NCBI GenBank assembly: GCA_035566535.1 | Contig: DATMRA010000130.1 | Span: 170 to 64,169 of the forward strand | Reading direction: 5' to 3' | From: Candidatus Acidiferrales bacterium | GTDB lineage: Bacteria; Chloroflexota; Dormibacteria; Aeolococcales; Aeolococcaceae | Length of the DNA: 64,000 bases | Translations under genes and position numbers: made by a program | The notes under the pieces: model-generated | Database searches by the model: none | Told to the model about the DNA's origin: nothing | What the model saw: the letters and a program-made list of their open reading frames with translations, nothing else | Shown: in pieces, positions 13,912 through 51,527 of the stretch | How positions within the stretch are numbered: the stretch's first letter is position 1 | Layout of the letters: every line of letters begins with the position of its first letter

Positions 13912-14053
13912 GCGAACGGAGCGGCAGCCTGTGAAGGGAGGTCGCGCAGGCGAACCGGCACGTGGTTGGAGCGGAGGGTGAGCCGAGCGCCAGCGGCGCG
14001 GCCCCAGAGGGGCTGCGACCGCGACCCGAAACAGGCTGTCGATCCGTTCGCCA
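13912..14053. repeat. Family-B structured intergenic element, copy 1 (about 142 bp). Conserved core flanked by a locus-specific roughly 21-bp inverted repeat.
   Basis: The core ggttggagcggagggtgagccgagcgccagcggcgcggccccagaggggctgcgac is similar to copies at 39821-39900, 44387-44465 and 51419-51495. The flanks gcgaacggagcggcagcctgt and acaggctgtcgatccgttcgcc are reverse-complementary. Lies 27 nt after the metH stop. Confidence 0.7.
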
Positions 14054-14077
14054 GACCACGCCGAAGCCGCGAATCGC

Positions 14078-14371
14078 TCAGTCGGTGTAGCGACGGATCC
14101 GGTCGGTCTCCGCTTCGTGCTCGCCGCGGTACAGCCCGCACGTCTCCGGCTCGCCGATGCATGGTGGCACCGGGTGGCGCCCGGTAAAGCGGTGCGTGCG
14201 CCGGTCGACGTGGCAGTCGGCCTTGTAGCGGGTCAGCATGCCGAACGGACCCGCGCTCTCTTTCAGGATCTGTTCGAGGTACGGACAGCGCCGGTGATGG
14301 AGCGGAAGAGACTGCCGCGGCGCGGCCGGCTGGCGATCAGGCCGCGGTGGAGGCGGTGGTTCCGCGCGCAT
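14078..14371 (-). CDS. Hypothetical small Cys-containing protein (possibly shorter, starting at MLTRYK)
   Basis: 97-aa ORF with four Cys (CPYL...DCHVD...PPCIGEPETCG). No family recognised with confidence, and the high-GC background makes spurious ORFs common. Confidence 0.25.
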   Translation of the reverse strand: MRAEPPPPPRPDRQPAAPRQSLPLHHRRCPYLEQILKESAGPFGMLTRYKADCHVDRRTHRFTGRHPVPPCIGEPETCGLYRGEHEAETDRIRRYTD

Positions 14372-14401
14372 CCTGGTTCACGTTTCCTTGGTTCGCTTGT
14401 A

Positions 14402-14767
14402 TCAGGAGGCGAGCATTGCCTGGATGCGCGAGGCCAGCTCCTTGATTTTGAAGGGCTTGGCCAGCGTCTGCACGTTGCCGTACGCCTCCAGCTTCGGCGC
14501 TGTCGACGCATTGACGAGTGCGCTGACGACGAGCACCTTGGGTCCGTTTCCATGGTCTGCGCGAATCTTTTCGAGGACCTGCGTGCCGCTCAGATCGCCT
14601 GGCAGCATGAGGTCGAGCAGGATGAGGTCGGGTTGAAACTCGTTGAAAACCGTGAGCCCTTCGTCTCCGCTCTTCGCCACCTTGACCTCGTATCCCTCCA
14701 TGGTGCAGAGCAGGGACTCGATGTCGGCGAGCGCGTAATAGTCCTCGATGATCAGGACCTTCTTCAT
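14402..14767 (-). CDS. Stand-alone CheY-like response regulator receiver domain protein
   Basis: 121 aa from ATG 14765-14767: MKKVLIIEDYYALADIES...DLILLDLMLPG...KPF. Has the receiver-domain acidic pocket and conserved K, and no output domain. Confidence 0.8.
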   Translation of the reverse strand: MKKVLIIEDYYALADIESLLCTMEGYEVKVAKSGDEGLTVFNEFQPDLILLDLMLPGDLSGTQVLEKIRADHGNGPKVLVVSALVNASTAPKLEAYGNVQTLAKPFKIKELASRIQAMLAS

Positions 14768-14877
14768 ATCTCCATCTGCTTCCGAAAGTTGGGCCGCCGC
14801 CGCAGGGAGCATAGCACGGTCAAATCCGCCGATCCCGAGGTCACGCAGCAGGCCCTGACGCCGCTGGGAAAGGGCTT

Positions 14878-16050
14878 TCAGCCCTTGCGGTCGATGATCG
14901 TGGCGGTGCCCAGGCCACCGCCGCAGCACATCGTTTCCAGCCCGTAGCGCGCGTCGCGCCGCTCCAGCTCGTGAAGCAGCGTGGTCATGAGCCGCGCCCC
15001 GGTGGCGCCGAGCGGGTGACCGAGCGCGATGGCGCCACCGTTGACGTTCACCCGCTCCATGTCCGGGTGGTGCTCTTTTTCCCAGGCCAGCACGACGGGC
15101 GCGAAAGCCTCGTTCACCTCGAAGAGATCGATGTCATTGACGACGAGCCCCGCGCGGCCCAGCACCTTCGCCGTGGCGGGGATGGGTCCGGTCAGCATCG
15201 TCACCGGGTCCACGCCGACCACCGCCTGGGCGACGATCCTCGCCCGCGGCTTGATGCCCAGCTCGGCCGCCCGGCGCGCCGACATGAGGAGAACTGCGGC
15301 GGCTCCGTCGGTGATCTGCGAAGAGTTGCCCGCGTGGAGAATGCCATCGGGCTTGAACGACGGTTGCAGTTGGGCAAGCACATCGACTGTCGTGTCGGGC
15401 CGGATTCCCTGGTCCTGGCTGACCACGCGACCGTCACCGTTCGCACCGACGACGACAGGTGCGATCTCGCGGTCGAACCGTCCTGCGGTCTGAGCAGCGG
15501 CTGCGCGCTGCTGCGACTGAACGGCGAAGGCATCCGCCTCGTCGCGGGTGATGGCCCACTGTTCGGCGATCATCTCCGCGGCGAGACCCTGGGGTACGAG
15601 GTTGTAGTGCTCGAGCAATTCGGGCGGAAACGGCGTGCCCGGACCTTGCAGAACGGTGGACCCCATGGGCACACGACTCATGCTCTCGACGCCCGCGGCG
15701 ATGGTGATGTCGCAGACACCGGACTGGATGAGATTCGCGGCAAAGTGGATCGCCTGCTGCGACGAACCGCATTGACGGTCGACCGTGGTGCCAGGCACCT
15801 CGACGGGGAACCCCGCTGCCAGGAGCGCCTGGCGCGCAACGTTGACACTCTGCTCACCGGTCTGACTGACGCACCCCATCACGACATCGTCGACCAGCGC
15901 TGGGTCGAGCCCTGCGCGACTCGTCACCTCATTCAGCACGTGCGCGGCGAGCAGCACCGGGTGCATCTCGCGGAGATCTCCGTTCTTCAGCGACCCGCGT
16001 GCGAGCGGCGTGCGCACCGCCTCGACAATTACGACATCGTCCATATCCAA
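14878..16050 (-). CDS. Acetyl-CoA C-acetyltransferase (thiolase II)
   Basis: 390 aa. Matches the thiolase family along its full length (active-site Cys region CGSSQQAI, C-terminal GLETMCCGGGLG). Confidence 0.9.
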   Translation of the reverse strand: MDMDDVVIVEAVRTPLARGSLKNGDLREMHPVLLAAHVLNEVTSRAGLDPALVDDVVMGCVSQTGEQSVNVARQALLAAGFPVEVPGTTVDRQCGSSQQAIHFAANLIQSGVCDITIAAGVESMSRVPMGSTVLQGPGTPFPPELLEHYNLVPQGLAAEMIAEQWAITRDEADAFAVQSQQRAAAAQTAGRFDREIAPVVVGANGDGRVVSQDQGIRPDTTVDVLAQLQPSFKPDGILHAGNSSQITDGAAAVLLMSARRAAELGIKPRARIVAQAVVGVDPVTMLTGPIPATAKVLGRAGLVVNDIDLFEVNEAFAPVVLAWEKEHHPDMERVNVNGGAIALGHPLGATGARLMTTLLHELERRDARYGLETMCCGGGLGTATIIDRKG

Positions 16051-16111
16051 CTCTCCCTCGGTCCTCTCGCGAACATTATCAGGATGGGGAAAAGCGCCCG
16101 CCTCATCGAAT

Positions 16112-17794
16112 TCACGCCAGGCGGTACACGATGACCAGCGTGCGCGGCGAGGCCTGAGGCGCCAGCGGATCGACGGGGGCTCGCTCTGTGTCGATCACCT
16201 GCGCCGAGGTGCGTGGGGGCGGGTCACTAGGGCCGAGCACGAGCACGTCGCCGGGTTGCGCCGACTGCTCGGCAGCGGAAGGATCCGAGACACGCACGCC
16301 GAGCATGTCGAGGCCCCGCCCCGAGGAGTCGCTGGCAGGCGACGTGGGCGGCGGCGGCAGCAGCGCCACAAACGCGTCGATGTACGGCTGCTCGTTCAGC
16401 GTGGACGAGATGTACACGGTGTGCCCGTTCGCCGCCTGAGCAGCGGCGAGCACAGCGGGCACGGCGCCTGTGTCGAAAGCCTCCCCCGCACGCACAGGAT
16501 ATGAGGTGTACATGTCAACCGTGTACAGCGCACCCTGGACGACGAGTGCAGCCGTGAGTAGCGCGGGGATCACCGGGCGGCGAGCGGTGATCGTCCTGAT
16601 GGAGCCCATCCCGTAGGCCGCAAGTACGAAAAGGAAGGGCAGCATGATCGCGCCGCGCAGAGCGTGGGGCACCGGGTACGTGAGCGCGCCGGCGACAGGG
16701 CCGAGGAGCAGACACAGCAGGGTGAAGCGCGGCAGCAGCTCTGCACGCCGCTTCCAGCACGCCCACAGTCCGAGCAGGAGAAGCGGGAGCATGACGGCCA
16801 GCAGCATCCCCGCGTAGCCCGTGTTGTGCCGCAGATTTGCATCGCCGTGTATGAACAGAAAGTCGGGCGAGAAGAACTGGATGTAGTTGGAGAGAAAGCG
16901 CCCGGCCAGCGCCGGCAGCGTGGGGTGATCCGTGCCGATGTTCACCACGGAGAACTCCGCCGTCAACGCGCCCGGATGTTGCAGCGACCAGACACCAAGC
17001 ACGGCGTACCCAGCGACAACCGGCACCAGCGCGAGCCACCATTGCCGCCGGTGCCGGTAGACGAGTGCGAAAGCCACAGCAAAGAGGAGGATCTCAAGCC
17101 TCCCGGCGCTGTACGCGAATATGGAGATGGCGAGGAAGACGCCGGCGAGTGCAAACCGGGCCGGCGAGACGCGGGAGTCGTCCGCAAGACACCAGACGGC
17201 CACGGCCATGGTCGCCACCAGGGCGATCACCTCGAATCCAACCCGGCTCTCCTGGGTCAGCCACGGCGTCAGCGCGGCGAGTGCCGCGACGAACAGGGTG
17301 ACGCCGCGTGAGCGGCTGATCCGCCACGCGGCCAGGCTGATGAACAGGACCGCGATAACGCCGAACACCACGGCAGGTAGGCGCTCGACCGTCGCGGTCA
17401 CCGGCAGAACGCGCAGGAATGGGACCAGCGTGTAGATGTAGAGCGGATTCTTGTACTCGCCAAAGGCCTGAAAGTACAAGGGAAGATGAAAGCCGTGCTC
17501 GTCCACGCCGTAGTGTGCAATCGCCCATGCGTTGTAGCCGATCGACGCTTCGTCGACGTACATGCCGGGAGGGGTACGATCGAGGCCCAGCAGGTTGCGG
17601 GCGAGCAGAGCGACACCGATGGCGCCGAACGCAAGCACCCAGAGGGCGGCGTTGCGTTGCGCGCCGCCCCGGCGCGCGTCACCCACCCGCGCTGGCGGAG
17701 ACGAAATCGCGAAACAGGCGGCGCGACCACTCGTGACCTGCGTACAGGTCTTCCGGGTGGCACTGCACGCCGACAACAAACCGGCGGCTCTCAT
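16112..17794 (-). CDS. GT-C fold glycosyltransferase (ArnT/PMT-like, GT39/GT83 family) polytopic membrane protein
   Basis: 560 aa with more than 10 TM segments and an N-terminal loop DE motif (MYVDEASIGYNAW) typical of PMT/ArnT mannosyl/arabinosyl transferases. The annotated 5' end overlaps the upstream gene by about 115 nt, so the true start is probably an internal GTG/TTG. Confidence 0.6.
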   Translation of the reverse strand: MRAAGLLSACSATRKTCTQVTSGRAACFAISSPPARVGDARRGGAQRNAALWVLAFGAIGVALLARNLLGLDRTPPGMYVDEASIGYNAWAIAHYGVDEHGFHLPLYFQAFGEYKNPLYIYTLVPFLRVLPVTATVERLPAVVFGVIAVLFISLAAWRISRSRGVTLFVAALAALTPWLTQESRVGFEVIALVATMAVAVWCLADDSRVSPARFALAGVFLAISIFAYSAGRLEILLFAVAFALVYRHRRQWWLALVPVVAGYAVLGVWSLQHPGALTAEFSVVNIGTDHPTLPALAGRFLSNYIQFFSPDFLFIHGDANLRHNTGYAGMLLAVMLPLLLLGLWACWKRRAELLPRFTLLCLLLGPVAGALTYPVPHALRGAIMLPFLFVLAAYGMGSIRTITARRPVIPALLTAALVVQGALYTVDMYTSYPVRAGEAFDTGAVPAVLAAAQAANGHTVYISSTLNEQPYIDAFVALLPPPPTSPASDSSGRGLDMLGVRVSDPSAAEQSAQPGDVLVLGPSDPPPRTSAQVIDTERAPVDPLAPQASPRTLVIVYRLA

Positions 17795-18401
17795 CTTCGA
17801 CGGCCTCGATCACGCCGTCCGTTGAAAACGCTGTCACGGTGAGCGACGGCGCGGGGTCGCGAATCGCCTGGTGATGCCGGCTGTTCACCTCGATGACATC
17901 CGCTCCCGTGAGGTCGCGCAACCGTGAGCCCCGCTCGACGGTCAGCTGATGCACGACGTCTCGATGCGACTCAGCGTGGTCGTGCCGCAACGCACCGTCG
18001 AACTGCACCAGCAGGTCCTGCCACAGGGTGCCTCCGAGCGCCACGTTGAGCACCTGGGCGCCGCGGCAGATCGCGAGCAACGGCTTGCCGTCCGCGATTG
18101 CCCAGCTGATGAGCGCGGTCTCGACGTCGTCGAGCTCGGCGTCGGCATCGACACGGCAGTCGCGACGCTCCTCCTCTCCGTACAGCCTCGGCTGCACATC
18201 CGGACCACCCGGTACGCATATCGCATCGCAGCGGTCGTACAGGGCGCGCAGACGATCGGCGCGGACGGAGATGGGCAATGACATCACCGCGGCGCCGCCG
18301 CCATCCAGAGCTTCGTAGTAGGCGCGGTTGCGCATGAGGTAGGGCGGCCGTCCATTACCGGCGATCGGGCGCAGCGTGAGACCCACGACCGGCACTGACA
18401 T
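17679..18401 (-). CDS. Class-I glutamine amidotransferase-like gamma-glutamyl hydrolase (peptidase C26, PuuD-like)
   Basis: 240 aa carrying the catalytic Cys in LAICRGAQ and the HH motif (NSRHHQAI) of the C26 family. Confidence 0.8.
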   Translation of the reverse strand: MSVPVVGLTLRPIAGNGRPPYLMRNRAYYEALDGGGAAVMSLPISVRADRLRALYDRCDAICVPGGPDVQPRLYGEEERRDCRVDADAELDDVETALISWAIADGKPLLAICRGAQVLNVALGGTLWQDLLVQFDGALRHDHAESHRDVVHQLTVERGSRLRDLTGADVIEVNSRHHQAIRDPAPSLTVTAFSTDGVIEAVEDESRRFVVGVQCHPEDLYAGHEWSRRLFRDFVSASAGG

Positions 18402-18424
18402 GTCCAGATCCTAGATCGGCGACG

Positions 18425-19753
18425 TTACGACGTGAACGCGAAGTGGCCGAGATGCAGCCACGGTGACAGGACTCCACTCTCACCCTCCTCGAGCTCGAGG
18501 AGCCGATCCCGCGAGACGCCGTGCACATCGTTGAGCGCGTCGACGATGCTCTGGGTGAAGCGCAGATCGTTCACAGGGGCGCCCAGCTTTCCGTTCTCGA
18601 TGAGAAACGTCCCGTCACGGGTCATGCCCGTGATGATCGTGCGCAGGGGATGAACGTCGCGGACGTACCAGAAGCGTGTGACATAGAGCCCGCGCTTCAC
18701 CGCGCCGACCAGCTCGTCGACCGTGCGGTCGCCCGCAGCCATATGCATGTGCCGCGGGAAGGGTCCCCAGGTGTTGGGTTGCGGCAGCGAGTGGCCCGTC
18801 GACTCGACGCCGTCGCGCAGTGCCGTCGGGGTGTCGTAGACGAAACTCGCGCACACGCCGCGCTCGACGAGGTTCACAACGCGCGTGGACACGCCCTCGT
18901 CGTCGAACGGGTAGGGAAAGAGCTGGGGATCGCGACAGTCGTCGGCGATCGTGACCGTGTCGCTCATCAGCTGCTCGCCAAGCCGCATGAAACTGCGGTG
19001 CTCCTGTTTGGCGAGGGCGCTGAAGCCGACCCACGAGAGGTGACCGAGCAGGTCGGCGACCGCGTACGGTGAGAGAACAACCTCATACAGGCCCGGCTCG
19101 ACGGGGTGCGCGTTCTGGTTGCGCATGCACGTGTCCACGGCCTCCGTCGCGAGCCCTTCGACGTCGATCGACTCGACATCCGGAGAATGCCGAGCGGCAT
19201 AGCCGGAGCCGTTCTCACCGCGCACCAGCGCGATCATGCTTGCCTGCGTCGAGGTCGCCGCTCGCCGCAGCCCGCGCGTGTTCACCAGGGCGGTGCCGGT
19301 CGTTTGTGTGCTCACGAAGCCATACGCCCGCAGACCCTGCGCTGCGGCCAGGCGCGTGACGGCGCCCACCATGTCGGCGCGAGCCTCCGGCGATGCGGCC
19401 GCCGTGGCCTCGCTGAACGCGACCGGTGTGTCATCACCGCCGTCGGGAGCCGGCAGCGGCGCGACATCCTCACGCGCCGAGATTCGGCGCGCGTCTTCCG
19501 CGGCTGCTGCGACACGTGCAGCCGATCCCGCTGCCTCGCCCCGCACCTCGGCCACTCCTACTCGGCTGTCTGCCAGCACGCGCGCGCGGAGTCGAAGCCC
19601 CGACTCGGCGACGTTCTGGTGAATGATGCTGGCCGCATAGCGCGTCAGCTCGACCTCCGACGCGACGGCGACCGCTTCGGCGCCGTCGCCGGTCGCGTGG
19701 GCCAGCACCGCATCCGCGGCGCCGAGGAGCTCGTCACGACTGCGGGGCGTCAC
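18425..19753 (-). CDS. tldE: TldE/PmbA family metalloprotease modulator
   Basis: Paralogous to the adjacent TldD and matches the PmbA_TldD fold. The start is assigned to the GTG (19751-19753) that overlaps the tldD stop (GTGA). Confidence 0.8.
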   Translation of the reverse strand: MTPRSRDELLGAADAVLAHATGDGAEAVAVASEVELTRYAASIIHQNVAESGLRLRARVLADSRVGVAEVRGEAAGSAARVAAAAEDARRISAREDVAPLPAPDGGDDTPVAFSEATAAASPEARADMVGAVTRLAAAQGLRAYGFVSTQTTGTALVNTRGLRRAATSTQASMIALVRGENGSGYAARHSPDVESIDVEGLATEAVDTCMRNQNAHPVEPGLYEVVLSPYAVADLLGHLSWVGFSALAKQEHRSFMRLGEQLMSDTVTIADDCRDPQLFPYPFDDEGVSTRVVNLVERGVCASFVYDTPTALRDGVESTGHSLPQPNTWGPFPRHMHMAAGDRTVDELVGAVKRGLYVTRFWYVRDVHPLRTIITGMTRDGTFLIENGKLGAPVNDLRFTQSIVDALNDVHGVSRDRLLELEEGESGVLSPWLHLGHFAFTS

Positions 19754-21192: not shown

Positions 21193-21248
21193 GGCTGCCG
21201 AGTATATCTGTCGAGTGTGGTCGGGGCTGTGCCTGTGGAGGCGTGAGA

Positions 21249-21322
21249 GACCATGCGCAGCCGGCTAGCCCGCCGGCGAGTACATAGCGGCTTGCGACGC
21301 CAACGGCGTCGCCCGCGGGGTC
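21249..21322. repeat. Repeat A, copy 2 (about 72 bp) with hairpin gcgacgcc-aac-ggcgtcgc (21294-21312). Lies 33 nt downstream of the stop of the substrate-binding protein gene.
   Basis: About 95% identical to 515-586, in the same orientation relative to the upstream minus-strand gene. Confidence 0.7.
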
Positions 21323-21354
21323 TAAAACGCCTCCACAGGCACTGCTCCCAGACC

Positions 21355-37611: not shown

Positions 37612-37615
37612 GAAT

Positions 37616-39751: not shown

Positions 39752-39789
39752 CGACCGAACACTGTACGGCGGAGGCTCCGCTTGGAATG

Positions 39790-39932
39790 GGCGGAGGCGA
39801 TGAGACCCCGGAGGCGGGCGTCACGGAGGCGAGCCGGAACGGCTTGGAGCGAAGGGCGAGCCGAGTGCCGAGCCGCGGGCCCCCAGCGGGGGTCCGACGG
39901 CGTACCGCCGAAGGGTCTTGTCGACTCCGCCC
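39790..39932. repeat. Family-B structured intergenic element, copy 2 (about 143 bp). Core 39821-39900, flanked by the imperfect inverted repeats gggcggaggcgatgagaccccgg and ccgaagggtcttgtcgactccgccc.
   Basis: Core tcacggaggcgagccggaacggcttggagcgaagggcgagccgagtgccgagccgcgggcccccagcgggggtccgac. Lies 25 nt downstream of the csaA-like stop (minus strand). Confidence 0.75.
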
Positions 39933-39956
39933 TATTCCACAGCGCAGGCCGGAGCT

Positions 39957-40319
39957 TCAGCCTATGCGGTCGCCGGGTGAGCAGTCGCGCTCCGGCGTCA
40001 ACAACACGACCTCTTCGCTGCCGTGCTGGTACGCGCCCAAGATCAGGCTCTCGCTGCGCACGGGGCCGATCTGGCGCGGCGGCAGGTTCACCGTGCCGGC
40101 GACCAAACGGCCCACCAAGTCCTCCGGCTTGTACAAATCGGTGAGCCGCGCCGACGACCGCCGCGTCCCAAGTGGGCCGAAGTCGACAACCATGCGGTAG
40201 GCGGGCTTGCGCGCTTCCGGGAACGGCTCGCAGCTGACGACTCGGCCCACGCGGATGTCGACGGCGAAGAACTGCTCGGCGGGAACCTCAGGCAGCGGCG
40301 TAGCGGCGTCCTCTGACAC
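39957..40319 (-). CDS. tRNA-binding protein (CsaA/Trbp111/EMAP-like OB-fold)
   Basis: 120 aa matching the tRNA-binding domain family (FFAVDIRVGRVVSCEPFPEARKPAYRMVVDFG). Confidence 0.75.
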   Translation of the reverse strand: MSEDAATPLPEVPAEQFFAVDIRVGRVVSCEPFPEARKPAYRMVVDFGPLGTRRSSARLTDLYKPEDLVGRLVAGTVNLPPRQIGPVRSESLILGAYQHGSEEVVLLTPERDCSPGDRIG

Positions 40320-41126: not shown

Positions 41127-42934
41127 GCCGCAGCGCGCTCGGCGATGCCCGCGCTGATCGGGACGCGAGCGGGTCGCTTCGTGCTTCCCGCCGCCTCGCT
41201 GTCGGCATTGCAGCCGGTGGCGTCCTGCTGTCGGCCGCGGACACGTACGTCATCGTGCTCGCGCTCCCCGCAATCATGGGAGACGTCGGCATCGGGCTCG
41301 ACCAGCTGCAGCAGGCGACGCCGATCATCAGCGGTTTCCTGCTCGGCTACGTCGCCGTCATGCCACTGCTCGGCCGTCTCTCGGATCTCTATGGAAGGCG
41401 TCCCCTCTTCCTGATCTGCCTCGCGTTGTTTGCGGCCGGCTCGCTGGTGACGGCGTCTGCGCACGAATTGAACTCTGTCGTCGCGGGCCGCGCACTGCAG
41501 GGAATCGGCGGCGGCGGCCTGGTGCCGGTGACGCTTGCGCTGGTGGCCGACAGGTGGCCGGTGCGCGACCGTGGCATTCCCCTCGGAGTCGTCGGCGGTG
41601 TGCAGGAGCTGGGGAGTGTCGTCGGCCCGCTGTATGGCGCGCTGATCCTCAGCTTCAGCACGTGGCGCACCATCTTCTGGCTGAATCTGCCGTTGTGCGC
41701 CGGCCTTGGCGTCGCGCTCGCATTTGCGCTGGGGAGCCGCCGTCACCCGTCGCGCACCGCGCGCAGGATCGACTGGCTCGGGACGGTCCTTGCAGGAGTT
41801 GCGCTCGTGGCGGGCGCGCTTGCCATCGCCGCACCTGATGCGCTCCGCAACAGCGATGCCGTGGGCGTGCTGTACTCACCGCTTGGCGAGGTGGCGTGGT
41901 TGACGCCGCTCGTCATCCTCTCGCTCACAGCGGCGCTCGCGTTCTGCGCGTGGGAGCTGCGAAGCGCGTGGGGCGGCGCACTCTCTGTGACGCGTGCACG
42001 GGTGGCCGCTTTCACACGACCCGTCGACTGGATCGGCTCCGCGCTCGCTGCTGCGGCGCTTGCGCTCATCGTCGTGTCCTTTTCCACCAGCGACCCGAGT
42101 AGGAGCGCGCTATCGGGCTCGGCTTTGTGGCTTCTGCCAGTCGCTGCGGTGTGCGTCGCGCTCTTCATCTGGCGAGAGCAGCACGCGGCCGCCCCGCTCC
42201 TTGATTTCGGAGAGTTGCGCTCCGCGGGCGCGGTCGGGCCGCTGCTGGTGAACCTCGCGGTCGGCGCAGCCCTCATGGCGGCGCTGCTGGATATCCCAAT
42301 CCTGGCGCGAGTCACTGTTTTCAAGGACTCGCAGCTTGGCGCTGCGCTCGTGCTGCTCCGTCTGCTCATAGCAGTGCCCGTCGGGGCAGTCATCGGTGGC
42401 TGGCTCTCTCGGCGCTGGGGAAATCGTGTCGTCGCGTCAGCAGGTCTTGCCCTGACGACGGCAATGTTCGTGTTGATGAGCCGCTGGACGGCGCAGACGC
42501 TGTCGGATCCCCTCGGATTCACCTGGCTGCACCCCAGCGACCCGGTACTGCTCGCGTGCGGTCTCGGCTTCGGACTGGCGATCGCGCCGGTGAACGCGTC
42601 GATGCTCGCCGCCGTGCGGCCTGCGATGCATGGCGTCGCATCGGCGCTGGTCGTTGTGGCCCGCACGGTCGGCATGCTGGTCGGCATCTCGGTGCTCACG
42701 GCCGTGGGACTGCGCGCGTTTTACGCGGCCACAGCGACCTTGCCGTCGCCGGTCACCCTCTGTCCGCGGACGCCACTCCAGTGCGACGCGTATGACACGC
42801 TGGTGACCAAGGCGGTGGTGACGGAACTGGGGACGGTGTTCGCGGGAGCGGCGGTGTGCGCAGGAGTGGCGGCAGTCCTCGCACTGCTGCTGCTGCGGAC
42901 ACATGAGCGCAGTGGTCGCGTAGCCTATGCCTGA
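41123..42934 (+). CDS. MFS drug:H+ antiporter, 14-TM DHA2 (EmrB/QacA, P55-like)
   Basis: 603 aa with motif A GRLSDLYGRRPLF and 14 hydrophobic segments. Overlaps lprG by 4 nt. Confidence 0.85.
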   Translation: MSRSALGDARADRDASGSLRASRRLAVGIAAGGVLLSAADTYVIVLALPAIMGDVGIGLDQLQQATPIISGFLLGYVAVMPLLGRLSDLYGRRPLFLICLALFAAGSLVTASAHELNSVVAGRALQGIGGGGLVPVTLALVADRWPVRDRGIPLGVVGGVQELGSVVGPLYGALILSFSTWRTIFWLNLPLCAGLGVALAFALGSRRHPSRTARRIDWLGTVLAGVALVAGALAIAAPDALRNSDAVGVLYSPLGEVAWLTPLVILSLTAALAFCAWELRSAWGGALSVTRARVAAFTRPVDWIGSALAAAALALIVVSFSTSDPSRSALSGSALWLLPVAAVCVALFIWREQHAAAPLLDFGELRSAGAVGPLLVNLAVGAALMAALLDIPILARVTVFKDSQLGAALVLLRLLIAVPVGAVIGGWLSRRWGNRVVASAGLALTTAMFVLMSRWTAQTLSDPLGFTWLHPSDPVLLACGLGFGLAIAPVNASMLAAVRPAMHGVASALVVVARTVGMLVGISVLTAVGLRAFYAATATLPSPVTLCPRTPLQCDAYDTLVTKAVVTELGTVFAGAAVCAGVAAVLALLLLRTHERSGRVAYA

Positions 42935-44321
42935 GCGCGTGAGGGCTGTGTTGATCCGCCCGTTGCAGATCGACGACATTCTCGACGCGGTGACGGACGC
43001 CGTTCGCGTGACCGGAATCGAAACCTATCTGGTGGGTGGCTTCGTTCGCGACCGGCTCCTTGGACGCGCGGGCAAGGACCTGGACCTGGTCACGGTCGGC
43101 GTCGAAGGCATACCTGTGCTCGATCGGGTCGCCAGGCAGTTCGGGTGGCCTCCGCCCCAGCGCTTCGACCGCTTTGGCACGGGCCAGATCAGGGGCGACG
43201 GCTTCGTGCTCGAGGTGGTCCGCGCGCGCTCGGAGGAGTACGACCCGGAATCCCGTAAGCCCGATGTGAAGCCCGGCACCCTGGCAGAGGATGTGTGGCG
43301 GCGCGACTTCACAGTCAACGCGCTCTGCCAGACGCTCGACGGACACGTGCTCGACATCACGGGGCGCGGGCTTGATGACCTGCGCGCTGGAATCCTGCGG
43401 ACGCCGCTCGAACCGGGTGACACGTTCGCCGAGGACCCGCTGCGGATGTTTCGCGGCGCGCGATTTGTCGCGCAGCTCGACTTTGCACTCGCCGCCGGCA
43501 TCATCGAAGCGATGCGAGGTCAGGCGCACCGCGTCGGGATTCTCAGCGTCGAGCGGGTCAGCGAGGAACTGCGTCGCATTCTGACGGCGCCGCATCCGAG
43601 CTTCGGCTTCCACGTTCTGCGCGACGGCGGGCTGCTCGATGTGGTGCTCCCCGAAGTGAGCGCGATGATCGGCGTCGAACAGGGCGGTTATCACATCTAC
43701 GACGTGTTCGATCACACGATGCAGGCGCTGGATAAGGCTCCTGCGGACCTGATCACACGCGCGGCGGTGCTCCTGCATGACGTCGGCAAGCCACCGACTC
43801 ACGCTGTCACATCCGACGGCCGCCACACGTTCTACGACCACCCACAGGTGGGAGCGCGCATCACGCGCGAGCTGCTCACCCAACTTCGCTTCAGCAACGA
43901 CGAGATCGCCGCTGTTTGCCGGCTGGTGAGCCTTCACCTGCGCCCGATCCAGTACGACGAAGCGGCCTTCAGCGATGCCGCTGTGCGCCGCCTCATCCGC
44001 GACGCCGGTGATCTGCGCACGGAAATGCTCGACGTCGCCCGCGCCGACACACGTGCATCGTCCTTCCCAACAACACAGGGCATCGACGACCTGGAGGCGC
44101 GCATGGCACGCCTCGACGCAGGCGGCGAGGTCTCACATCTGCGCGATCCGCTGACCGGCGAGGAGATCATGGAAATGGCGGGACGCGGCCCCGGCCCCTG
44201 GGTCGGCAGAATCAAGCGCGCGCTGCAAGACGCAGTGCTCGAGGGCACAATCCCGCCCGGCGACAATGGTTCGGCGCGCCATTGGCTCGAATCGCACCGC
44301 GAGTTGTTCACGGCCGAGTGA
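42927..44321 (+). CDS. cca: CCA tRNA nucleotidyltransferase (PolyA_pol head domain + HD domain)
   Basis: Has GGFVRDRLLGR...DLDL, RDFTVNAL, and a C-terminal HD domain (LLHDVGKP...DHP). Confidence 0.85.
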   Translation: MPERVRAVLIRPLQIDDILDAVTDAVRVTGIETYLVGGFVRDRLLGRAGKDLDLVTVGVEGIPVLDRVARQFGWPPPQRFDRFGTGQIRGDGFVLEVVRARSEEYDPESRKPDVKPGTLAEDVWRRDFTVNALCQTLDGHVLDITGRGLDDLRAGILRTPLEPGDTFAEDPLRMFRGARFVAQLDFALAAGIIEAMRGQAHRVGILSVERVSEELRRILTAPHPSFGFHVLRDGGLLDVVLPEVSAMIGVEQGGYHIYDVFDHTMQALDKAPADLITRAAVLLHDVGKPPTHAVTSDGRHTFYDHPQVGARITRELLTQLRFSNDEIAAVCRLVSLHLRPIQYDEAAFSDAAVRRLIRDAGDLRTEMLDVARADTRASSFPTTQGIDDLEARMARLDAGGEVSHLRDPLTGEEIMEMAGRGPGPWVGRIKRALQDAVLEGTIPPGDNGSARHWLESHRELFTAE

Positions 44322-44356
44322 CGCTCGCGACGGACGAGACTTCGGAAGTCGTGTCT

Positions 44357-44498
44357 GCCGGAGAGCATGCAGGTGGAGCGCGACCGTCACGGAGCCGAGC
44401 CGGAACGGGTTGGAGCGGAGGGCGAGGCGAGTGCCGAGCGGCGGGCCCCCAGCGGGGGCCCGACCGCTGTGTCGCGCGAAACCTGCGTGCTCTCCGGC
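44357..44498. repeat. Family-B structured intergenic element, copy 3 (about 142 bp). Core 44387-44465, flanked by a perfect-but-one 18-bp inverted repeat gccggagagcatgcaggt / acctgcgtgctctccggc.
   Basis: Lies 36 nt after the cca stop. The core hairpin gggcccccagcgggggccc is perfect. Confidence 0.8.
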
Positions 44499-44560
44499 TA
44501 GCCCGCGGCTTGCGGCCGTCCGGGTGTCGCGCTCCCTCGGGAAGTACAATTCGCGGTTCG

Positions 44561-44989: not shown

Positions 44990-45432
44990 GAGTGCTGTTT
45001 CTGAAAGAGGTGACCGGAACGGCGAAGGCCGGGGACGTCAAAGAGGTGACGCCGGGCTATGCGCGCAACTTTCTGTTCCCCAAGCACCTGGCTGTGGTCG
45101 CAGACGATCGGGTGGTCGAGCAGATTCGCAATCGCGAGGAGGCCGCGCGCCGACGCGCCGAGAAGGAGCTCAACGATGCTCGCGATGTGGCGCAGCGGCT
45201 GCGCAAGCTGACCGTGACCGTCTATGCGAAGACAGGCGAGGGCGGCCGACTCTTCGGATCGATCACCAACAGCGATGTCGCCCAGCAGCTCAAGCGCGAG
45301 GCGGGAATCGACGTCGACAAGAGGAAGATCGAGATCGATTCTCCCATCAAGTCACTCGGGCCGCACGAGGTGCGCATCGAGCTGCATTCGGAGATCACGG
45401 AAACCCTCAAGGTGGTGGTGGCAGCTCAGTGA
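44986..45432 (+). CDS. rplI: 50S ribosomal protein L9
   Basis: 148 aa: MRVLFLKEVTGTAKAGDVKEVTPGYARNFLFPKHLA... Confidence 0.95.
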   Translation: MRVLFLKEVTGTAKAGDVKEVTPGYARNFLFPKHLAVVADDRVVEQIRNREEAARRRAEKELNDARDVAQRLRKLTVTVYAKTGEGGRLFGSITNSDVAQQLKREAGIDVDKRKIEIDSPIKSLGPHEVRIELHSEITETLKVVVAAQ

Positions 45433-45442
45433 CAACGTCGAC

Positions 45443-46825: not shown

Positions 46826-46921
46826 CGCATTGGTTGCGTTCGCGTAATGCAACCTTCCGCGCGCTGCGACGTTCTTTAAAGCAGCCCCCTTTTCGGGGAC
46901 GCGAGAGGTCTAATAGAAGAC

Positions 46922-47932
46922 GTGGTCAGGGGCATCTTTAGACGCATGCGCACGGTGATGAATTCGCCGTGGCTGCGCGTGGCCGGCACGCTCGTGGGGA
47001 TCGGGCTCCTGGTCCGCGCCATCGACTTCCCCAAGGCGGTGGTCAGCCTCGGGGGCGCCGACCTGCGCTGGATCGTCGGGGCGCTCGCCCTCACCGCCGT
47101 CGCCGTCCTGGCGAGCGTGGTCGAGTGGGGGGTCCTCATTCGCACAAGTCGCTCCGCGGTGCCCGCACACGCCTCGCTCTTCACCTGGCCGCGCCTCAGT
47201 TCCTCGTATCTGCAGAGCCTGTTCTTCACCCAGGTGATCCCGGCGGGCGTTGGCGGTGACGCCGTGCGAACGGTTGAGATGGGCAAGCACGTGGGTCACA
47301 GCCGGGTTCTGGCCTCTCTGGCCGGCAGCCGGATGGCTGGGTTGCTGGGCATGGCCGCCTGGGGTCTCGCCGCGGCGGTGCTCCTCCGCGATTGGCTCGG
47401 CAACGGGGTCTACATCGGACTCGCCGCCATGGTGGCGGTGATGGTGGCCGTCTGGATGTCCGCACTGAGCGCAGATCGCCTCGGGCCGCATCGACTTGTT
47501 GAGCGCGTCTCTGCCGTGACCGGCCGCGCGGTACACGCTTTCACCGACTCGTTCTCCGCATACCGGCGGCATCCGCACGCTGTCGTCCAGTGCGTGCTGG
47601 TCGGCGCCGTCGGCTGGGGCGTGAACCTCTTTGCCCTCGACTTCGCGGCCAAGGCCATCGGCGTCGACCTGAGCTGGACCGTCCTCGCCGTCTGCATCCC
47701 GCTCGGTTTGCTCGCGGCCCTGGCGCCCTTCAGCATCAACGGCCTCGGCGTTCGAGAAGGCGTTCTCGTCGCACTTCTGGTCCATACCGGCGTGTCGGCT
47801 ACCCACGCGGGAGCCCTCTCACTCCTGGTCGACCTGCAGATGGTGCCGTTCGCATTCATGGGCGCGGTGCTCTGGATGCGGACCCGGCGCATGACCGCCG
47901 CCATCCCCGTCCTGGCGCCGATTCGCTTCTGA
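46922..47932 (+). CDS. Integral membrane protein, lysylphosphatidylglycerol-synthase-TM-region / UPF0104 flippase-like family (paralogue of 7503-8543)
   Basis: 336 aa with about 8 TM segments and a conserved GDAVR motif. Confidence 0.6.
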   Translation: MVRGIFRRMRTVMNSPWLRVAGTLVGIGLLVRAIDFPKAVVSLGGADLRWIVGALALTAVAVLASVVEWGVLIRTSRSAVPAHASLFTWPRLSSSYLQSLFFTQVIPAGVGGDAVRTVEMGKHVGHSRVLASLAGSRMAGLLGMAAWGLAAAVLLRDWLGNGVYIGLAAMVAVMVAVWMSALSADRLGPHRLVERVSAVTGRAVHAFTDSFSAYRRHPHAVVQCVLVGAVGWGVNLFALDFAAKAIGVDLSWTVLAVCIPLGLLAALAPFSINGLGVREGVLVALLVHTGVSATHAGALSLLVDLQMVPFAFMGAVLWMRTRRMTAAIPVLAPIRF

Positions 47933-47975
47933 ACCGGCGGGCGCCGTCAGCCTGAGCGCCTACACTCAGCGGCGC

Positions 47976-49082
47976 ATGAGCACGCAGTTCAGCGACTTCC
48001 TCGCCGCGCACGCGGCGCGGATCGCGGAGCTGAGCACCGCCGGGGTCGAACCGGCTCCTGACGCAGGCGGGGACACAGCCCAGGATCCGCGCCAGCTGGT
48101 GAATGCCGTGCTCGTCGCCCTGACCGCGGGCGATATGCAGCCGCTGGTCGCCTTCTACAGGCTGGACCACCCCGCAGGCCTGAGCGAGCGCCTCGACCGC
48201 GCCATCCGGGACGTCCAGAGCCTGCGGCGCGGGGCGACCGAAGAGGCCTCGCAGCAGGGGCTGGACGTGGAGCTGCGGGTCGCGCTCGAGGTTGCGGCGG
48301 GCGACGAGGTCGGATCCCTACTCCGGCGTCTGTCAGTCGAGTGCCTCGCGAACCTGGAACAGCAGCTCTCGACCGCAACATCAACCTCATCGGCCCAGGG
48401 GACGTCGCTGTCCATCACGATGCACGAGCTGCGCCGCCCGCTGACCATCCTCAACAGCTACGGCCAGCTCCTGTCCACCGGGATGCTTGGCACGCTCCCC
48501 GAGACCGCGATGGTCGCGATCGAGGGGATCACGGCGAGCACCGAGATGATGGTGCGCATGGTCAACTCGCTGGCGGAGCTGGCCCGCCTCGAAGATCCAG
48601 ATGACCAGATGTCGCTCGAGGTCATCGACGCCGGCGAGATCATCGCCGCGGCTGTGGAGCAGGTGGGCATGGAAGCAAAGCTGCGCGGCACCCGCATCGA
48701 GACCGACGTGAGCCCGGGCATCGTGGTGCGAGGCGACCGGCGCCGGCTCACGCTGGCCATCACCAATCTCGTCGGCAACGCAGTGAAACACGGTCCACCC
48801 GATTCCATCGTCGAGGTGAGTGTCGGCTCAGATGCCGGCGCGGCGCACTTCGTGGTCCGCGACCACGGTGCGGGGTTTCCCCCTGAGGACGCCGCGCACC
48901 TGTTCGACAAATATTTCCGCTCCGTCGCCGAACGCCACCGCAAGGTGCCGGGCAGCGGCCTCGGCCTGTATATCGTCAGAACCGTGGCCCTGCGCCATCG
49001 CGGCGGCGTGGCCGCGCGCTGTGTACCGGGAAACGGGGCCGAGTTTGAAATGATCATCCCCATCCATCAGGAGGAGCGCTGA
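47976..49082 (+). CDS. Cytoplasmic sensor histidine kinase (HisKA + HATPase_c, no TM)
   Basis: H-box ITMHELRRPLTIL; N/G boxes NLVGNAVKHG and GSGLGLYI. Confidence 0.85.
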   Translation: MSTQFSDFLAAHAARIAELSTAGVEPAPDAGGDTAQDPRQLVNAVLVALTAGDMQPLVAFYRLDHPAGLSERLDRAIRDVQSLRRGATEEASQQGLDVELRVALEVAAGDEVGSLLRRLSVECLANLEQQLSTATSTSSAQGTSLSITMHELRRPLTILNSYGQLLSTGMLGTLPETAMVAIEGITASTEMMVRMVNSLAELARLEDPDDQMSLEVIDAGEIIAAAVEQVGMEAKLRGTRIETDVSPGIVVRGDRRRLTLAITNLVGNAVKHGPPDSIVEVSVGSDAGAAHFVVRDHGAGFPPEDAAHLFDKYFRSVAERHRKVPGSGLGLYIVRTVALRHRGGVAARCVPGNGAEFEMIIPIHQEER

Positions 49083-49084
49083 TC

Positions 49085-50497
49085 ATGGCCGCGACCCGCA
49101 CGGAGAGGGACTCGATGGGCGACTTCGAGGTGCCCGAGGACGCGTATTACGGCGCCAATACGATGCGCGCGGCGGTGAACTTTCCCATCAGTGACCTTCG
49201 GCTTCCGCGCAGCTTCCTGCACGCGCTCGGACTCATCAAGCAGCAGTCGGCGCAGGTGAACAGCGACCTCGGCCTGCTCGACAAAGCGCTCGCCGGCGCG
49301 ATCGTGCGAGCGGCCCAAGACGTGATCGACGGAAAGCTCGACTCGCAGTTCGTGGTCGACGTGTTCCAAACGGGCAGTGGCACCTCCACCAACATGAATA
49401 TCAACGAGGTGCTCAGCAACAGAGCCATCGAATTGCTCGGCGGGGTCAAGGGTTCGCGCACCCCGGTGCACCCGAACGATCACGTGAATCTCGGTCAATC
49501 GAGCAACGACGTGATCCCCTCCGCCATCCAGGTGGCCGCTGCTATGGACATCCAGGGCCATCTGGTCCCTGCGTTGCAGACACTCGAGGATTCGCTGCGC
49601 GCCAAGGCAGATGAGTTCTGGCCCGTCGTGAAAACCGGCCGGACCCACATGCAGGACGCGACGCCGATCCGCCTCGGCCAGGAGTTCCTCGGGTACGCGG
49701 GCCAGGTCGAGCGCGCCCGCCGCCGCTGCAGCGAGGCCTTGGGGGCGCTGATCGAGCTACCTCTGGGCGGCACCGCCGTGGGAACGGGAGTCGGCACGCA
49801 TCCTGAGTTCGCCGAGCGCGTCATCGCGCGTCTCGCCGAGCTCACCGGGATCCCCTTCCGCGAGACCGACAACCATTTCGCCGGCCAGTCGACCCTGGAT
49901 TCGGTCGTGGCCGCCAGCGGAGCGCTCAAGGCTGTGGCGATCGCGCTGTACAAGATCGCCAACGACATCAGGTTGCTCGCCTTCGGTCCGCGCGCGGGCA
50001 TCGCCGAGATCCAGATTCCGGCGGTGCAGCCCGGGTCGTCGATCATGCCGGGCAAGGTCAATCCCGTCATCAGCGAGTCCGTGACCATGGTCGCGGCGCA
50101 GGTGATCGGCAATGACGCGACCATCAGCTTCTGCGGGGCGGCCGGGTCGCTGCTCGAGCTCAACGTGATGATGCCGGTGGCGGCGTACGACCTCCTGCAG
50201 TCGATCGCCCTGCTAGCGACGTCGGCGCGAAACCTGGCCGTGCAATCGGTCGACGGCATCGTCGCCACGAGCAACGGTCCCGATCTTGTTGAGCGCGGGT
50301 TGATGATCACCACCGCGCTCGCCCCGCGCATCGGGTACGACGCCGCCGGAGCGATCGCCAAGGAGGCGCTCGCCAGTGGCCGGACCATTCGCGAGGTGGC
50401 GCGCGAGCGCACGTCTCTCAGCGATGAGGAACTGGCCGAATTGCTCGATCCCGAGGCAATGACGCGTCCCGGGCTCGGCACCGCGACGGGTGGTTAA
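49085..50497 (+). CDS. fumC: Class II fumarate hydratase / aspartase family lyase (FumC-like)
   Basis: Signature GSSIMPGKVNP and the N-terminal DSMG...VP.DAYYGA. Closer to FumC than to AspA by N-terminal similarity, but the family boundary cannot be resolved without a search. Confidence 0.65.
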   Translation: MAATRTERDSMGDFEVPEDAYYGANTMRAAVNFPISDLRLPRSFLHALGLIKQQSAQVNSDLGLLDKALAGAIVRAAQDVIDGKLDSQFVVDVFQTGSGTSTNMNINEVLSNRAIELLGGVKGSRTPVHPNDHVNLGQSSNDVIPSAIQVAAAMDIQGHLVPALQTLEDSLRAKADEFWPVVKTGRTHMQDATPIRLGQEFLGYAGQVERARRRCSEALGALIELPLGGTAVGTGVGTHPEFAERVIARLAELTGIPFRETDNHFAGQSTLDSVVAASGALKAVAIALYKIANDIRLLAFGPRAGIAEIQIPAVQPGSSIMPGKVNPVISESVTMVAAQVIGNDATISFCGAAGSLLELNVMMPVAAYDLLQSIALLATSARNLAVQSVDGIVATSNGPDLVERGLMITTALAPRIGYDAAGAIAKEALASGRTIREVARERTSLSDEELAELLDPEAMTRPGLGTATGG

Positions 50498-51353
50498 CGT
50501 GGCCGGCGAAGGCAGGATCAGCGTGGTCGGCGCGGGCACCATGGGCGGCCAGATCGCGTACCAGGCTGCGCTTCACGGTTTCGACGTCCACCTTGTGAGC
50601 CGCAAGCAGGAGCGGCTCGAGGCGGCGCGCGACGAAGCTTCGAAGCTGCTGCGCCGACGCGTTGAGAAAGGCAAGCTGGACGGCGACGCGTGCGAGGCTG
50701 CCCTGGGCCGGGTATCGCTCAGCACCGATCTCTCGGAGATGGGCGGGTCGCGCGTGGTGATCGAGTCGGTTGCCGAGGACCGCGACACGAAGCGAGAAGT
50801 CTTTCAACGCATCTCCGAGTTTGCAGACGAACATGCCATCATTGGCACCAACTCGTCGACGCTGCCGTCATCGCTGTTCGAATCGGTTGTGGAGAACCCG
50901 TCGCGGCTCCTCAACATCCACTTCTTCAATCCGCCTCTGATGATGGCGCTGGTCGAGGTGGTGCGCGGACGGCACACGTCAGAGGACGCGGTGGAACGTG
51001 CGATGGAATTCGCCCGCGCGATAGGCAAGACACCGGTCCTGGTGGAGAAGGAGTCATACGGCTTCATCGCCAACCGCATCCTGTTCATCGCTCTGCAAGA
51101 AGCCATGCGGTTGGCGCAAGAGGGATTCATCTCGATCGAAGACTGCGACGTGGCGGTGAAGAATGCCCTGGGCTGGCCCATGGGACCGTTCGCGCTCTCC
51201 GACCTCATCGGCCTCGACGTGGTCGAAGCGATCCTCGCGGAGGGCTACGAGCAAACCGGTGACAATCGCTGGGAGCCGCTCGCCATTCTCCGAGACCACG
51301 TCGCGCGAGGTGAACTCGGACGCAAGACCGGGACTGGCTTCACTGCTAGCTGA
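50490..51353 (+). CDS. 3-hydroxyacyl-CoA (3-hydroxybutyryl-CoA) dehydrogenase
   Basis: Has VVGAGTMGGQIA and the C-terminal 3HCDH domain. Confidence 0.85.
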   Translation: MVNVAGEGRISVVGAGTMGGQIAYQAALHGFDVHLVSRKQERLEAARDEASKLLRRRVEKGKLDGDACEAALGRVSLSTDLSEMGGSRVVIESVAEDRDTKREVFQRISEFADEHAIIGTNSSTLPSSLFESVVENPSRLLNIHFFNPPLMMALVEVVRGRHTSEDAVERAMEFARAIGKTPVLVEKESYGFIANRILFIALQEAMRLAQEGFISIEDCDVAVKNALGWPMGPFALSDLIGLDVVEAILAEGYEQTGDNRWEPLAILRDHVARGELGRKTGTGFTAS

Positions 51354-51389
51354 ACTGGGCCTCTGCTCGCGAACCGCGTAGCGTCATGA

Positions 51390-51527
51390 AACGGGGCGGC
51401 GAAGTCCCGAAGGAGACCTCACGGAGGCGAGCAACAACGGCCTCGGAGCGCAGGGCTCGCCGAGTGCGAGCGGCGGACCCCAGAGGGGTCCGACCGCGTG
51501 TCTCTGGAGGGACTTCGCCGCCCCGTT
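51390..51527. repeat. Family-B structured intergenic element, copy 4 (about 138 bp). Core 51419-51495 enclosed by a perfect 18-bp inverted repeat acggggcggcgaagtccc / gggacttcgccgccccgt.
   Basis: Lies between two convergent genes, 37 nt after the hbd-like stop. Its core hairpin ggacccc-aga-ggggtcc shows compensatory changes relative to copy 3. Confidence 0.8.

Follow-up and report, generated by a model that had tools for sequence, protein, structure and literature searches.

Four long non-coding hairpins, which we call family A (copies 1 to 4, c1 to c4), lie along a 64,000-nucleotide stretch of contig DATMRA010000130.1 (GenBank assembly GCA_035566535.1, positions 170 to 64,169, from Candidatus Acidiferrales bacterium, which GTDB places in Dormibacteria of Chloroflexota). 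This whole stretch is referred to as the window. An earlier reading of its letters (the original prediction) had claimed four copies of an intergenic element, and all four are present at the coordinates given there, each on the plus strand. Here, the structure, range and turnover of these hairpins are described and the explanations for them are weighed.

Hairpin elements in the window

Copy 1 lies between metH (plus strand) and a convergent open reading frame (ORF) of 99 amino acids (aa) at 14078-14377, which has no Pfam match and may not be a real gene. Copy 2 is flanked by genes for an MFS transporter and a tRNA-binding-domain protein (tRNA_bind, 39957-40319), both on the minus strand. Copy 3 follows a CCA-adding-enzyme family gene (42927-44321, plus strand) and is itself followed by a 142-aa ORF, rplI and dnaB, and copy 4 is located between a 3-hydroxyacyl-CoA dehydrogenase gene (3HCDH, plus strand) and a convergent HAD-hydrolase gene. 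As had been predicted, every copy starts 25-37 nt past a stop codon (27 nt for c1, 25 nt for c2 when counted from the minus-strand tRNA_bind gene, 36 nt for c3 and 37 nt for c4).

A degenerate pattern of the core matched exactly four sites in the window (expectation in shuffled sequence, 0.00), and the four stretches could be aligned over a core of ∼85 nt with a mean column identity of 74%. Using a covariance model (R1) built from 41 distinct loci, the four copies scored 82-93 bits (13940-14024, 39819-39903, 44385-44469 and 51417-51499); with filters off, the rest of the window reached no more than 26 bits, the next best matches scoring 26 and 23 bits. For each copy, a single long hairpin was predicted, with folding energies of -93 to -107.5 kcal/mol (z from -6.1 to -9.0 relative to shuffles), and the minus strand of the four copies folded 2-15 kcal/mol more poorly than the plus strand.

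The repeat unit is the whole hairpin of ∼150-180 nt and reaches beyond the ∼85-nt core. From outside to inside, 18-23 bp of outer stem are followed by a symmetric internal loop of 3x3 purines (each strand reading GAA or GGA), a helix P1 of 4-7 bp and the core, which is a three-way junction formed with two helices, P2 and P3 (a Y-shaped tip). The bracketing inverted repeat of the original prediction was thus recovered, but its length of 18-22 bp was too short: when loop and P1 are included, 28-59 nt per side are paired across the family loci (median 43 nt). The parts of the four copies are as follows.

13910-13939, plus strand: copy 1 left arm (fold and inverted repeat I1)
13910-13932, 13933-13935 and 13936-13939, plus strand: outer stem, GAA loop and P1 of the copy 1 left arm (fold)
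13940-14024, plus strand: copy 1 core, three-way junction with P2 and P3 (R1, 88.7 bits; alignments A2 and A3)
14025-14053, plus strand: copy 1 right arm with P1', GAA loop and outer stem, containing AGACCACG (fold, inverted repeat)
39780-39818, plus strand: copy 2 left arm with distal and outer stem (39780-39808), CGGA loop and P1 (39813-39818) (fold)
39819-39903, plus strand: copy 2 core, antisense to the tRNA_bind gene (R1, 93.1 bits; gene context)
39904-39944, plus strand: copy 2 right arm with P1', GAA loop, outer stem and distal TTCCACAGCG (fold)
44350-44384, plus strand: copy 3 left arm with outer stem, GGA loop (44375-44377) and P1 GCGCGAC (44378-44384) (fold, repeat I4)
44385-44469, plus strand: copy 3 core, sense, 3' of the CCA-adding-enzyme family gene (R1, 84.3 bits; gene context)
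44470-44505, plus strand: copy 3 right arm with P1' GTCGCGC, GAA loop and outer stem (fold, inverted repeat)
51390-51416, plus strand: copy 4 left arm with outer stem (51390-51408), GAA loop and P1 GGAGAC (fold, repeats I5 and I10)
51417-51499, plus strand: copy 4 core with a class II P2, in which GGCGAGC is fully paired with GCTCGCC (R1, 81.8 bits; alignment A2)
51500-51527, plus strand: copy 4 right arm with P1' GTCTCT, GGA loop and outer stem (fold, inverted repeat)

In the two convergent contexts, pairing was also observed outside these arms, where it reaches the stop codons of the neighbouring genes and even their final coding triplets. Around c1, a weaker palindrome (13879-13890/14074-14084) reaches 13879, including the metH stop codon, on one side and 14084, including the stop of the minus-strand ORF 14078-14377, on the other. 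Around c4, 51346-51367, which includes the TAG stop of the 3HCDH gene, pairs with 51543-51564 within the 3' end of the convergent HAD-hydrolase gene. This suggests that the inverted repeat has grown outward at these two sites.

Searches for further members yielded five matches among 185,579 species genomes, all of them in Dormibacterota or 'Chloroflexi' metagenome-assembled genomes (MAGs) from soil, and 58 contigs from one metagenome scan. Together with the four window copies, these gave 46 loci after deduplication, 43 of which have the full architecture; 39 distinct loci from Dormibacterota MAGs and soil metagenomes are thereby added to those of the window. The window itself is partly identical to a soil-metagenome contig of the Joint Genome Institute, and homologs of its CCA enzyme carry the label Candidatus Dormibacteraeota. 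Family A is therefore restricted, within the genomes and metagenomes searched, to a subclade of the uncultured phylum Dormibacterota. The supposition that the core lies outside known Rfam families was borne out: no match to Rfam 15 at the gathering threshold could be found over the window, and searches at an E-value threshold over 12 kb and with the element alone returned chance-level matches only (at most 13.5 bits on the element). No tRNA or tmRNA was found in the window. A plasmid or phage origin was considered and dropped, as blastn gave no match in either.

Structure and conservation of core and arms

The core has a consensus RNA structure with statistically supported covariation. On alignment A2, which comprises 41 sequences, paired cells amounted to 93.4% as against 82.8% in shuffles, double-sided changes were present at 10 pairs (86 cells), and the covariation score was 0.252 compared with 0.065 in shuffles (reached by 0 of 500) and at most 0.038 in controls with slid partners. 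The same helices as in our hand-drawn model were independently predicted by RNAalifold. The compensatory changes that had been noted for an internal hairpin are real and, once the 41 loci are aligned, span two helices.

The base of P2 (P2a) pairs C-N-C with G-N'-G, and its middle pair (17:61) is AU in 23 sequences, UA in 14, GC in 3 and UG in 1; next to it lies an internal loop in which GGA faces GA. P2b contains eight pairs, including 23:56 (GC 27, CG 13, AU 1) and 24:55 (CG 39, UA 2), and its two central positions, which are Watson-Crick paired in 10 sequences, form a tandem G·A/A·G in the remaining 31. The apical loop of P2 has a variable 5' half followed by invariant GGAGCG-N-AGGG. P3 is a GC-rich helix of 13 pairs with a bulged A, in which 69:94 is GC in 28 and CG in 13 sequences, 75:87 is GC in 17, CG in 14 and AU in 10, and 77:85 and 78:84 swap from CG to GC in five sequences. 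A conserved G·U occupies pair 74:88 in 36 of the 41. No sigma-70-like site or AT-rich promoter-like box could be found in the core. Two family A copies in the MAG JAFARE01 (contigs L005, 6855-6980, and L006, 3021-3146; L numbers denote our comparison sequences) carry an extension of ∼40 nt at the tip of P3 with a shared inner hairpin, C(A/C)CG(C)GAAATCGCAGAyTTCGTGGGGTGA, which suggests that this tip tolerates extra sequence.

Conservation in place was measured for the c3 orthologs of the window, L071 and L042. Relative to the window, identity was 0.91-1.0 in P1 and the purine loops, 0.90 (L071) and 0.95 (L042) in the core, 0.80-0.84 and 0.68-0.73, respectively, in the outer arms, and 0.71-0.75 and 0.33-0.61 in the spacers; third codon positions of the neighbouring genes were 0.62-0.81 identical at these orthologs. 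The tip, P1 and the purine loops, which are far more conserved than neutral sites, are therefore constrained in place, whereas the outer arms change at a nearly neutral rate though still paired.

The arms themselves have several regular properties. Read in core-sense orientation, left arms are rich in G and right arms in C, and mismatches on the core-sense strand are more often G·T (78) than A·C (31). Similarity of arms between loci falls to background (0.27) past ∼35-40 nt, and P1 together with the proximal arm is subfamily-specific. CCAC[GA] occurs at an almost constant distance (29-37 nt) past the core in 12 of the 43 loci, and arm termini of the form CGTGG…CCACG are present in about 30% of copies. 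At L013, L014, L021 and L029, which have unrelated flanks, ∼25 nt of each arm and the ends CGTGGT/ACCACG are in common, and the similarity breaks off sharply outside these ends. Since paralogs at unrelated loci share this much of each arm plus the termini, the arms are part of the unit and travel with it. The statement that the arms are entirely different at each locus holds inside the window, but not for the family, given such paralogs. With respect to the terminal inverted repeats of MITEs (miniature inverted-repeat transposable elements), every copy has arms that are inverted repeats of each other, but between most copies their sequence decays to background, and sharing of ∼25 nt per arm is confined to a single subfamily. 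In size and number, family A agrees with MITEs, being non-coding, ∼150-180 nt long and present in four copies in 64 kb plus the other loci.

Sister families, site turnover and gene context

At least two further families of similar design were identified, B in the window and C in related contigs.

487-612, plus strand: family B copy 1 (weak R1 match, 23.0 bits)
21223-21348, plus strand: family B copy 2 (weak R1 match, 26.1 bits)
11423-11552 (minus strand) and 18421-18558 (plus strand) of L065: family C
about 2960-3087 of L012 and about 4323-4472 of L016: family C

Family B has arms of 35 nt separated by 56 nt and a different core (GACCATGCGCAGCsGGC…GAGTACATAGCGGCTTGCGACGCCAACGGCGTCGCCCGCGGGGTC), and both of its copies lie 3' of minus-strand genes. 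Family C has in common with family A the helix P1, the purine loops, a proximal arm GGTGAG(G)TCCC, and P2a with its GGA/GA loop; its P3 covaries (GACGCC/GGCGTC versus GACGGC/GCCGTC). Families A and C occur together on contigs L012 and L016, and in L065 the orthologs of the c3 and c4 sites hold family C. All three families share one scaffold, that is, long arms, an internal loop, P1 and a two-hairpin junction, and differ in their tips. A long hairpin between convergent genes of L070 (5553-5682), with 24-nt arms that are 92% complementary and an 82-nt centre of lower GC content, may be a fourth family. An inverted repeat of 26 nt around a 50-nt centre at 62922-63023 of the window is nearly identical to positions 611-712 of the metagenome contig L036; it has no relation to family A, B or C, and its location is probably inside a coding region.

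The occupancy of orthologous sites was compared among genera that are roughly equidistant (73-75% CCA-enzyme identity). The c3 site holds family A in the window, L071 and L042, an inverted A in L005 and an inverted C in L065, and is empty in L069, L066 and L067 (28, 89 and 90 nt long, respectively). The c4 site holds A in the window, C in L065, or is empty, and the c2 site is empty in L065, L069 and L066 (43, 44 and 9 nt). No long hairpin is present at the empty c2 and c3 sites, and no such element could be found in the syntenic 21-kb regions of L066, L067 and L069. A look-up with the window tRNA_bind protein returned one further contig only, which is filled like the window. Overall, the core is flipped in 3 of about 10 orthologous groups, and presence and absence vary at c2, c3 and c4 as is typical of MITEs. 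Over evolutionary time, the family thus behaves as mobile DNA of a non-autonomous kind.

The c2 site illustrates how such changes take place. In L008, the flanks are 94-96% identical to those of the window; its core, in flipped orientation, has 96% identity, and the arms are no more similar to the c2 arms of the window than unrelated sequence is (pairwise identities were computed with free end gaps, so that the unrelated baseline is ∼0.75 and values near it are read as unrelated). L071, which is more distant than L008, keeps the c2 arms of the window at 90-96% identity, and c2 and c3 alike are stable between these two. Change is therefore in part episodic, through the replacement of copies, in addition to being gradual. 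For cores of one genome, concerted evolution was rejected at the time scale separating the window and L071, as pair 69:94 and an insertion at column 63 track the site and not the genome. At the site of L070 orthologous to c3, there is an insertion of 3.8 kb (11401-15226), whose four ORFs are 108, 53, 103 and 796 aa long and had no Pfam or PADLOC match, so that no candidate partner enzyme emerged from it; the insertion suggests that c3 is an insertion hot spot.

Wherever neighbours could be called, the elements are almost always located where transcription units end, past a stop codon and ahead of the next promoter. In nearly all of these loci, the gene on one side or on both ends towards the element with its stop codon (L033 is ambiguous, both called genes being >230 nt away), and none of these loci is clearly located between divergent gene starts. 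Convergent contexts number about 14, and among tandem ones the core is in sense orientation in about 10 and antisense in 4-5 (for L005, synteny was used as well). A sense bias of 31 versus 4 was withdrawn, since convergent contexts are uninformative on orientation. The claim that the core is found in either orientation relative to the upstream gene rests, within the window, on c2, the only copy antisense to the gene whose stop codon precedes it.

All four window copies are situated after a stop codon and before the next promoter-like box. Boxes resembling a -10 element were noted at ∼44545 (TACAAT, ∼15 nt before an ATG, near c3) and at 39760-39768 (CACTGTACG, minus-strand TACAGT, near c2), and both are found again in L065-L071. 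That such conserved boxes lie just ∼8-15 nt upstream of start codons suggests that mRNAs of this lineage are leaderless or have very short leaders.

The elements are not recognizable as intrinsic (Rho-independent) terminators, which have a GC-rich stem of about 5-15 bp, a short loop and a U-tract: a consensus terminator scan found no canonical terminator at the elements or at the gene 3' ends that they follow, no T-run follows the right arm of c1-c4, and canonical terminators of these genomes have stems of 11-14 bp with A/T tracts. A textbook bidirectional intrinsic terminator at 3022-3054 of the window, AAAGGCCCCCGGCG-TGTT-TGCCGGGGGCCTTT, is unlike the repeat. In 604 kb of these genomes, uninterrupted long hairpins did not occur as a class, nor did a GAA-loop class; a scan for stems of at least 9 bp with loops of 3-8 nt yielded only family A P3 helices with AGC loops, the usual terminators and hairpins located inside coding regions. 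When the pattern was relaxed to GTGGY…RCCAC hairpins, the result lacked the specificity needed for interpretation.

Interpretation and comparison with known repeats

We favor the explanation that family A is a mobile hairpin, similar to a MITE or a repetitive extragenic palindrome (REP), which lies at transcription-unit 3' ends, is co-transcribed there and experiences selection at the level of RNA, with a function that we infer; its probability is about 0.55 in our estimation. The element would become part of the 3' untranslated region (UTR), where purifying selection on the core-sense strand would keep the core, P1 and the purine loops in place. The outer arms would only have to stay complementary, which would explain why they differ from locus to locus. 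A cis effect of the long GC-rich hairpin on the transcript 3' end is probable, either as a block to 3'-to-5' exonucleases or by termination or insulation without a U-tract, and the Y-shaped tip is probably the binding surface of one trans factor, which could be a mobilising enzyme or an RNA-binding or processing protein.

Several points weigh against this explanation. Co-transcription and the cis function are what we infer from sequence, and the excess of G·T over A·C mismatches fits a strand-specific structure of single-stranded DNA equally well. Tandem contexts favor the sense orientation by only ∼2-3 to 1, and c2 and both family B copies are antisense, a poor fit to a strictly sense-RNA function. 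Enrichment at 3' ends is also expected of purely parasitic repeats, because insertions there are tolerated (PMC3049150). No transposase or other partner gene was seen in the fetched sequence, and no consistent direct repeat or target-site duplication was seen at the boundaries of L013, L014, L029, c2 and c3, boundaries being uncertain in many copies. It should also be noted that the sample is biased, since a stringent core pattern was used for collection and several loci come from the same few soil populations.

The original prediction had offered two explanations, and each of them has a bearing on the alternatives. One was that a tiny mobile element inserts into the loops of terminator hairpins. 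In its more general form, a small mobile core, together with P1 and the purine loops, would insert into the loops of pre-existing locus-specific hairpins, the arms being the halves of the old stem. Such targeting has precedents, as insertion sequences directed to REP hairpins are known (PMC1525189), and it would account for the presence of A in the window lineage and C in L065 at the c3 and c4 sites, for the re-occupation of c2 in L008 by a flipped core with other arms between flanks that are 94-96% identical, and for the locus-specific pairing found outside the CGTGG/CCACG termini in c1, c4, L014 and L029; the purine triplets of the two sides could also be read as a 3-nt duplication. We nevertheless consider it quite improbable. 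Paralogs at unrelated loci share ∼25 nt per arm and the termini, the empty sites (L065 and L069 at c2; L069, L066 and L067 at c3) have no long hairpin, and the 604 kb contain neither a stock of uninterrupted long hairpins nor an enrichment of GAA triloops. Moreover, genuine terminators differ from the arms, and the outermost half-stem of c4 lies in the coding end of the convergent gene and so cannot be half of an old terminator. For the main arms, insertion into terminator loops is thus not supported. The other explanation was a structured RNA whose closing stem co-evolves locally. The structural part of it stands, as covariation, the conserved G·U pair, the G·T excess among arm mismatches and conservation in place agree with it, but a fixed RNA gene does not fit the varying site occupancy. 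If the elements were vertically inherited, non-mobile RNA genes or 3'-UTR elements whose arms differ by age and local co-evolution, the strong covariation, the retention of orthologous copies with a core above the neutral level and the stability of c2 and c3 between the window and L071 would be expected. Their neighbours, however, are of unrelated function (metH, cca, 3HCDH, tRNA_bind), occupancy is patchy over roughly equidistant genera with element-free syntenic 21-kb regions in L066, L067 and L069, arms are shared by paralogs, and a replacement together with a flip took place in a close relative. This possibility therefore appears unlikely.

A DNA-level role, in which transcription would be irrelevant and the strand-specific hairpin would form in single-stranded DNA as a substrate for a structure-specific recombinase or HUH enzyme (as for attC, REP/RAYT and IS200/IS605) or be an invertible switch between inverted repeats, is improbable in our estimation. 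It could explain the 78:31 asymmetry and the conserved G·T, as G·T is tolerated in DNA hairpins, and also the common chromosomal orientation of the six window elements (four A and two B) despite the directions of the neighbouring genes, the flipping of cores in 3 of about 10 orthologous groups, and a post-stop position with variable arms and short conserved ends, which generally recalls attC. On the other hand, no integrase, RAYT or other recombinase was seen among the partly annotated genes of the window, GTTRRRY/RYYYAAC and GTAG motifs are missing, what separates the copies are housekeeping genes, themselves conserved and in conserved order, and not cassettes, and the two family C copies of L065 face in opposite directions 7 kb apart. 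With regard to invertible switches, cores are flipped between the orthologous sites of different lineages and the flipped copies carry different arms, which simple inversion between the arms does not produce. A further idea, which we also hold to be rather improbable, is that the Y-shaped tip, P1 and the purine loops form an active RNA module or the recognition structure of a structure-specific mobility system. Such a module may cleave itself or serve as a processing signal, and could thereby set the 3' ends of mRNAs or free a ∼100-nt small RNA from dozens of different 3' UTRs; such a mobility system could reuse the same 3'-end sites and build new complementary arms at each event, a suggestion made because of the flipped, re-armed c2 allele of L008 and the occupancy of c3 and c4 by A or C.

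Among described repeats, bcr1 of the Bacillus cereus group, a transcribed, MITE-like element of ∼155 bp, is similar to family A in being a non-coding interspersed repeat of ∼150 nt with an extended stem fold, RNA-level compensatory changes and a non-conserved distribution (PMC3184786). The two differ in that bcr1 copies are similar over their full length and have 5-bp direct repeats, whereas family A is conserved in the centre with arms at background and no direct repeat; in addition, bcr1 belongs to another host phylum and has no three-way-junction tip. SPRITE, BOX and RUP of Streptococcus pneumoniae are also shorter than 200 bp, are predicted to form stem-loops on transcription and are strongly over-represented between convergent genes and near the 3' ends of coding sequences; SPRITE has no clear partner transposase, and all three have been proposed as co-opted terminators or to affect co-transcribed genes (PMC3049150). 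However, SPRITE is AT-rich, with a duplex of 18 bp and a U-rich tract, whereas family A is GC-rich and has no U-tract, much longer arms and a covarying Y-shaped tip. REP, BIME and REPIN sequences are likewise GC-rich, multicopy extragenic palindromes with a bias toward convergent gene ends and an effect on mRNA stability (PMC3116915, PMC2817692), and in REPINs a long hairpin is formed from two inverted halves. The conserved palindrome of a REP measures 20-40 nt, often carries a GTAG motif and is associated with a RAYT transposase gene. In these repeats the paired halves are conserved and the loop varies, which is the reverse of family A with its conserved centre and varying paired arms; furthermore, family A has no GTAG-type motif and no RAYT gene was seen, although an association with RAYT was not searched for specifically.

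Group IIC introns insert after terminator stem-loops. IS1397 and ISPpu9/10 are mobile elements that recognise extragenic REP hairpins, and the reuse of sites by family A resembles such targeted insertion (PMC1525189, PMC12288879). All of these elements encode their own enzyme and their targets also exist uninterrupted, whereas no such empty hairpins were found for family A and its arms travel along with it. Integron attC sites are imperfect palindromes of 57-141 bp located right after a stop codon, with variable sequence, conserved structure and a strand-specific fold; their ends are short and conserved, their terminal structure varies and their centre is least conserved. Family A is comparable in its post-stop position, variable sequence with conserved structure, short conserved ends, strand-specific fold and varying terminal structure. 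It differs in that it is surrounded by housekeeping genes in synteny, 5-25 kb apart and on either strand, which do not form a cassette array, its ends are at best CGTGG/CCACG and not GTTRRRY/RYYYAAC, no integrase was seen (no systematic integrase search was made), and its central tip is the most conserved part, whereas that of attC is the least.

The general kind of element is therefore known (bcr1, SPRITE/BOX/RUP and REP/REPIN; PMC3184786, PMC3049150, PMC3116915), and the inverted pattern of conservation, the Y-shaped tip and the use of several tips on one scaffold were not found described. For a phylum that only metagenomes have revealed, our data add a well-supported, previously undescribed structured-RNA/repeat family as well as a superfamily in which one scaffold bears at least three tips, and the covariance model of family A is directly usable for annotation. 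These hairpins also provide a tractable case for studying the upkeep of small repeats at gene 3' ends and their possible co-option for transcript 3'-end biology in GC-rich bacteria in which few canonical terminators were found. In comparison with classical MITEs and REPs, conservation is reversed in these elements, as the centre is kept while the arms change fast, and the same sites are reused by different tips.

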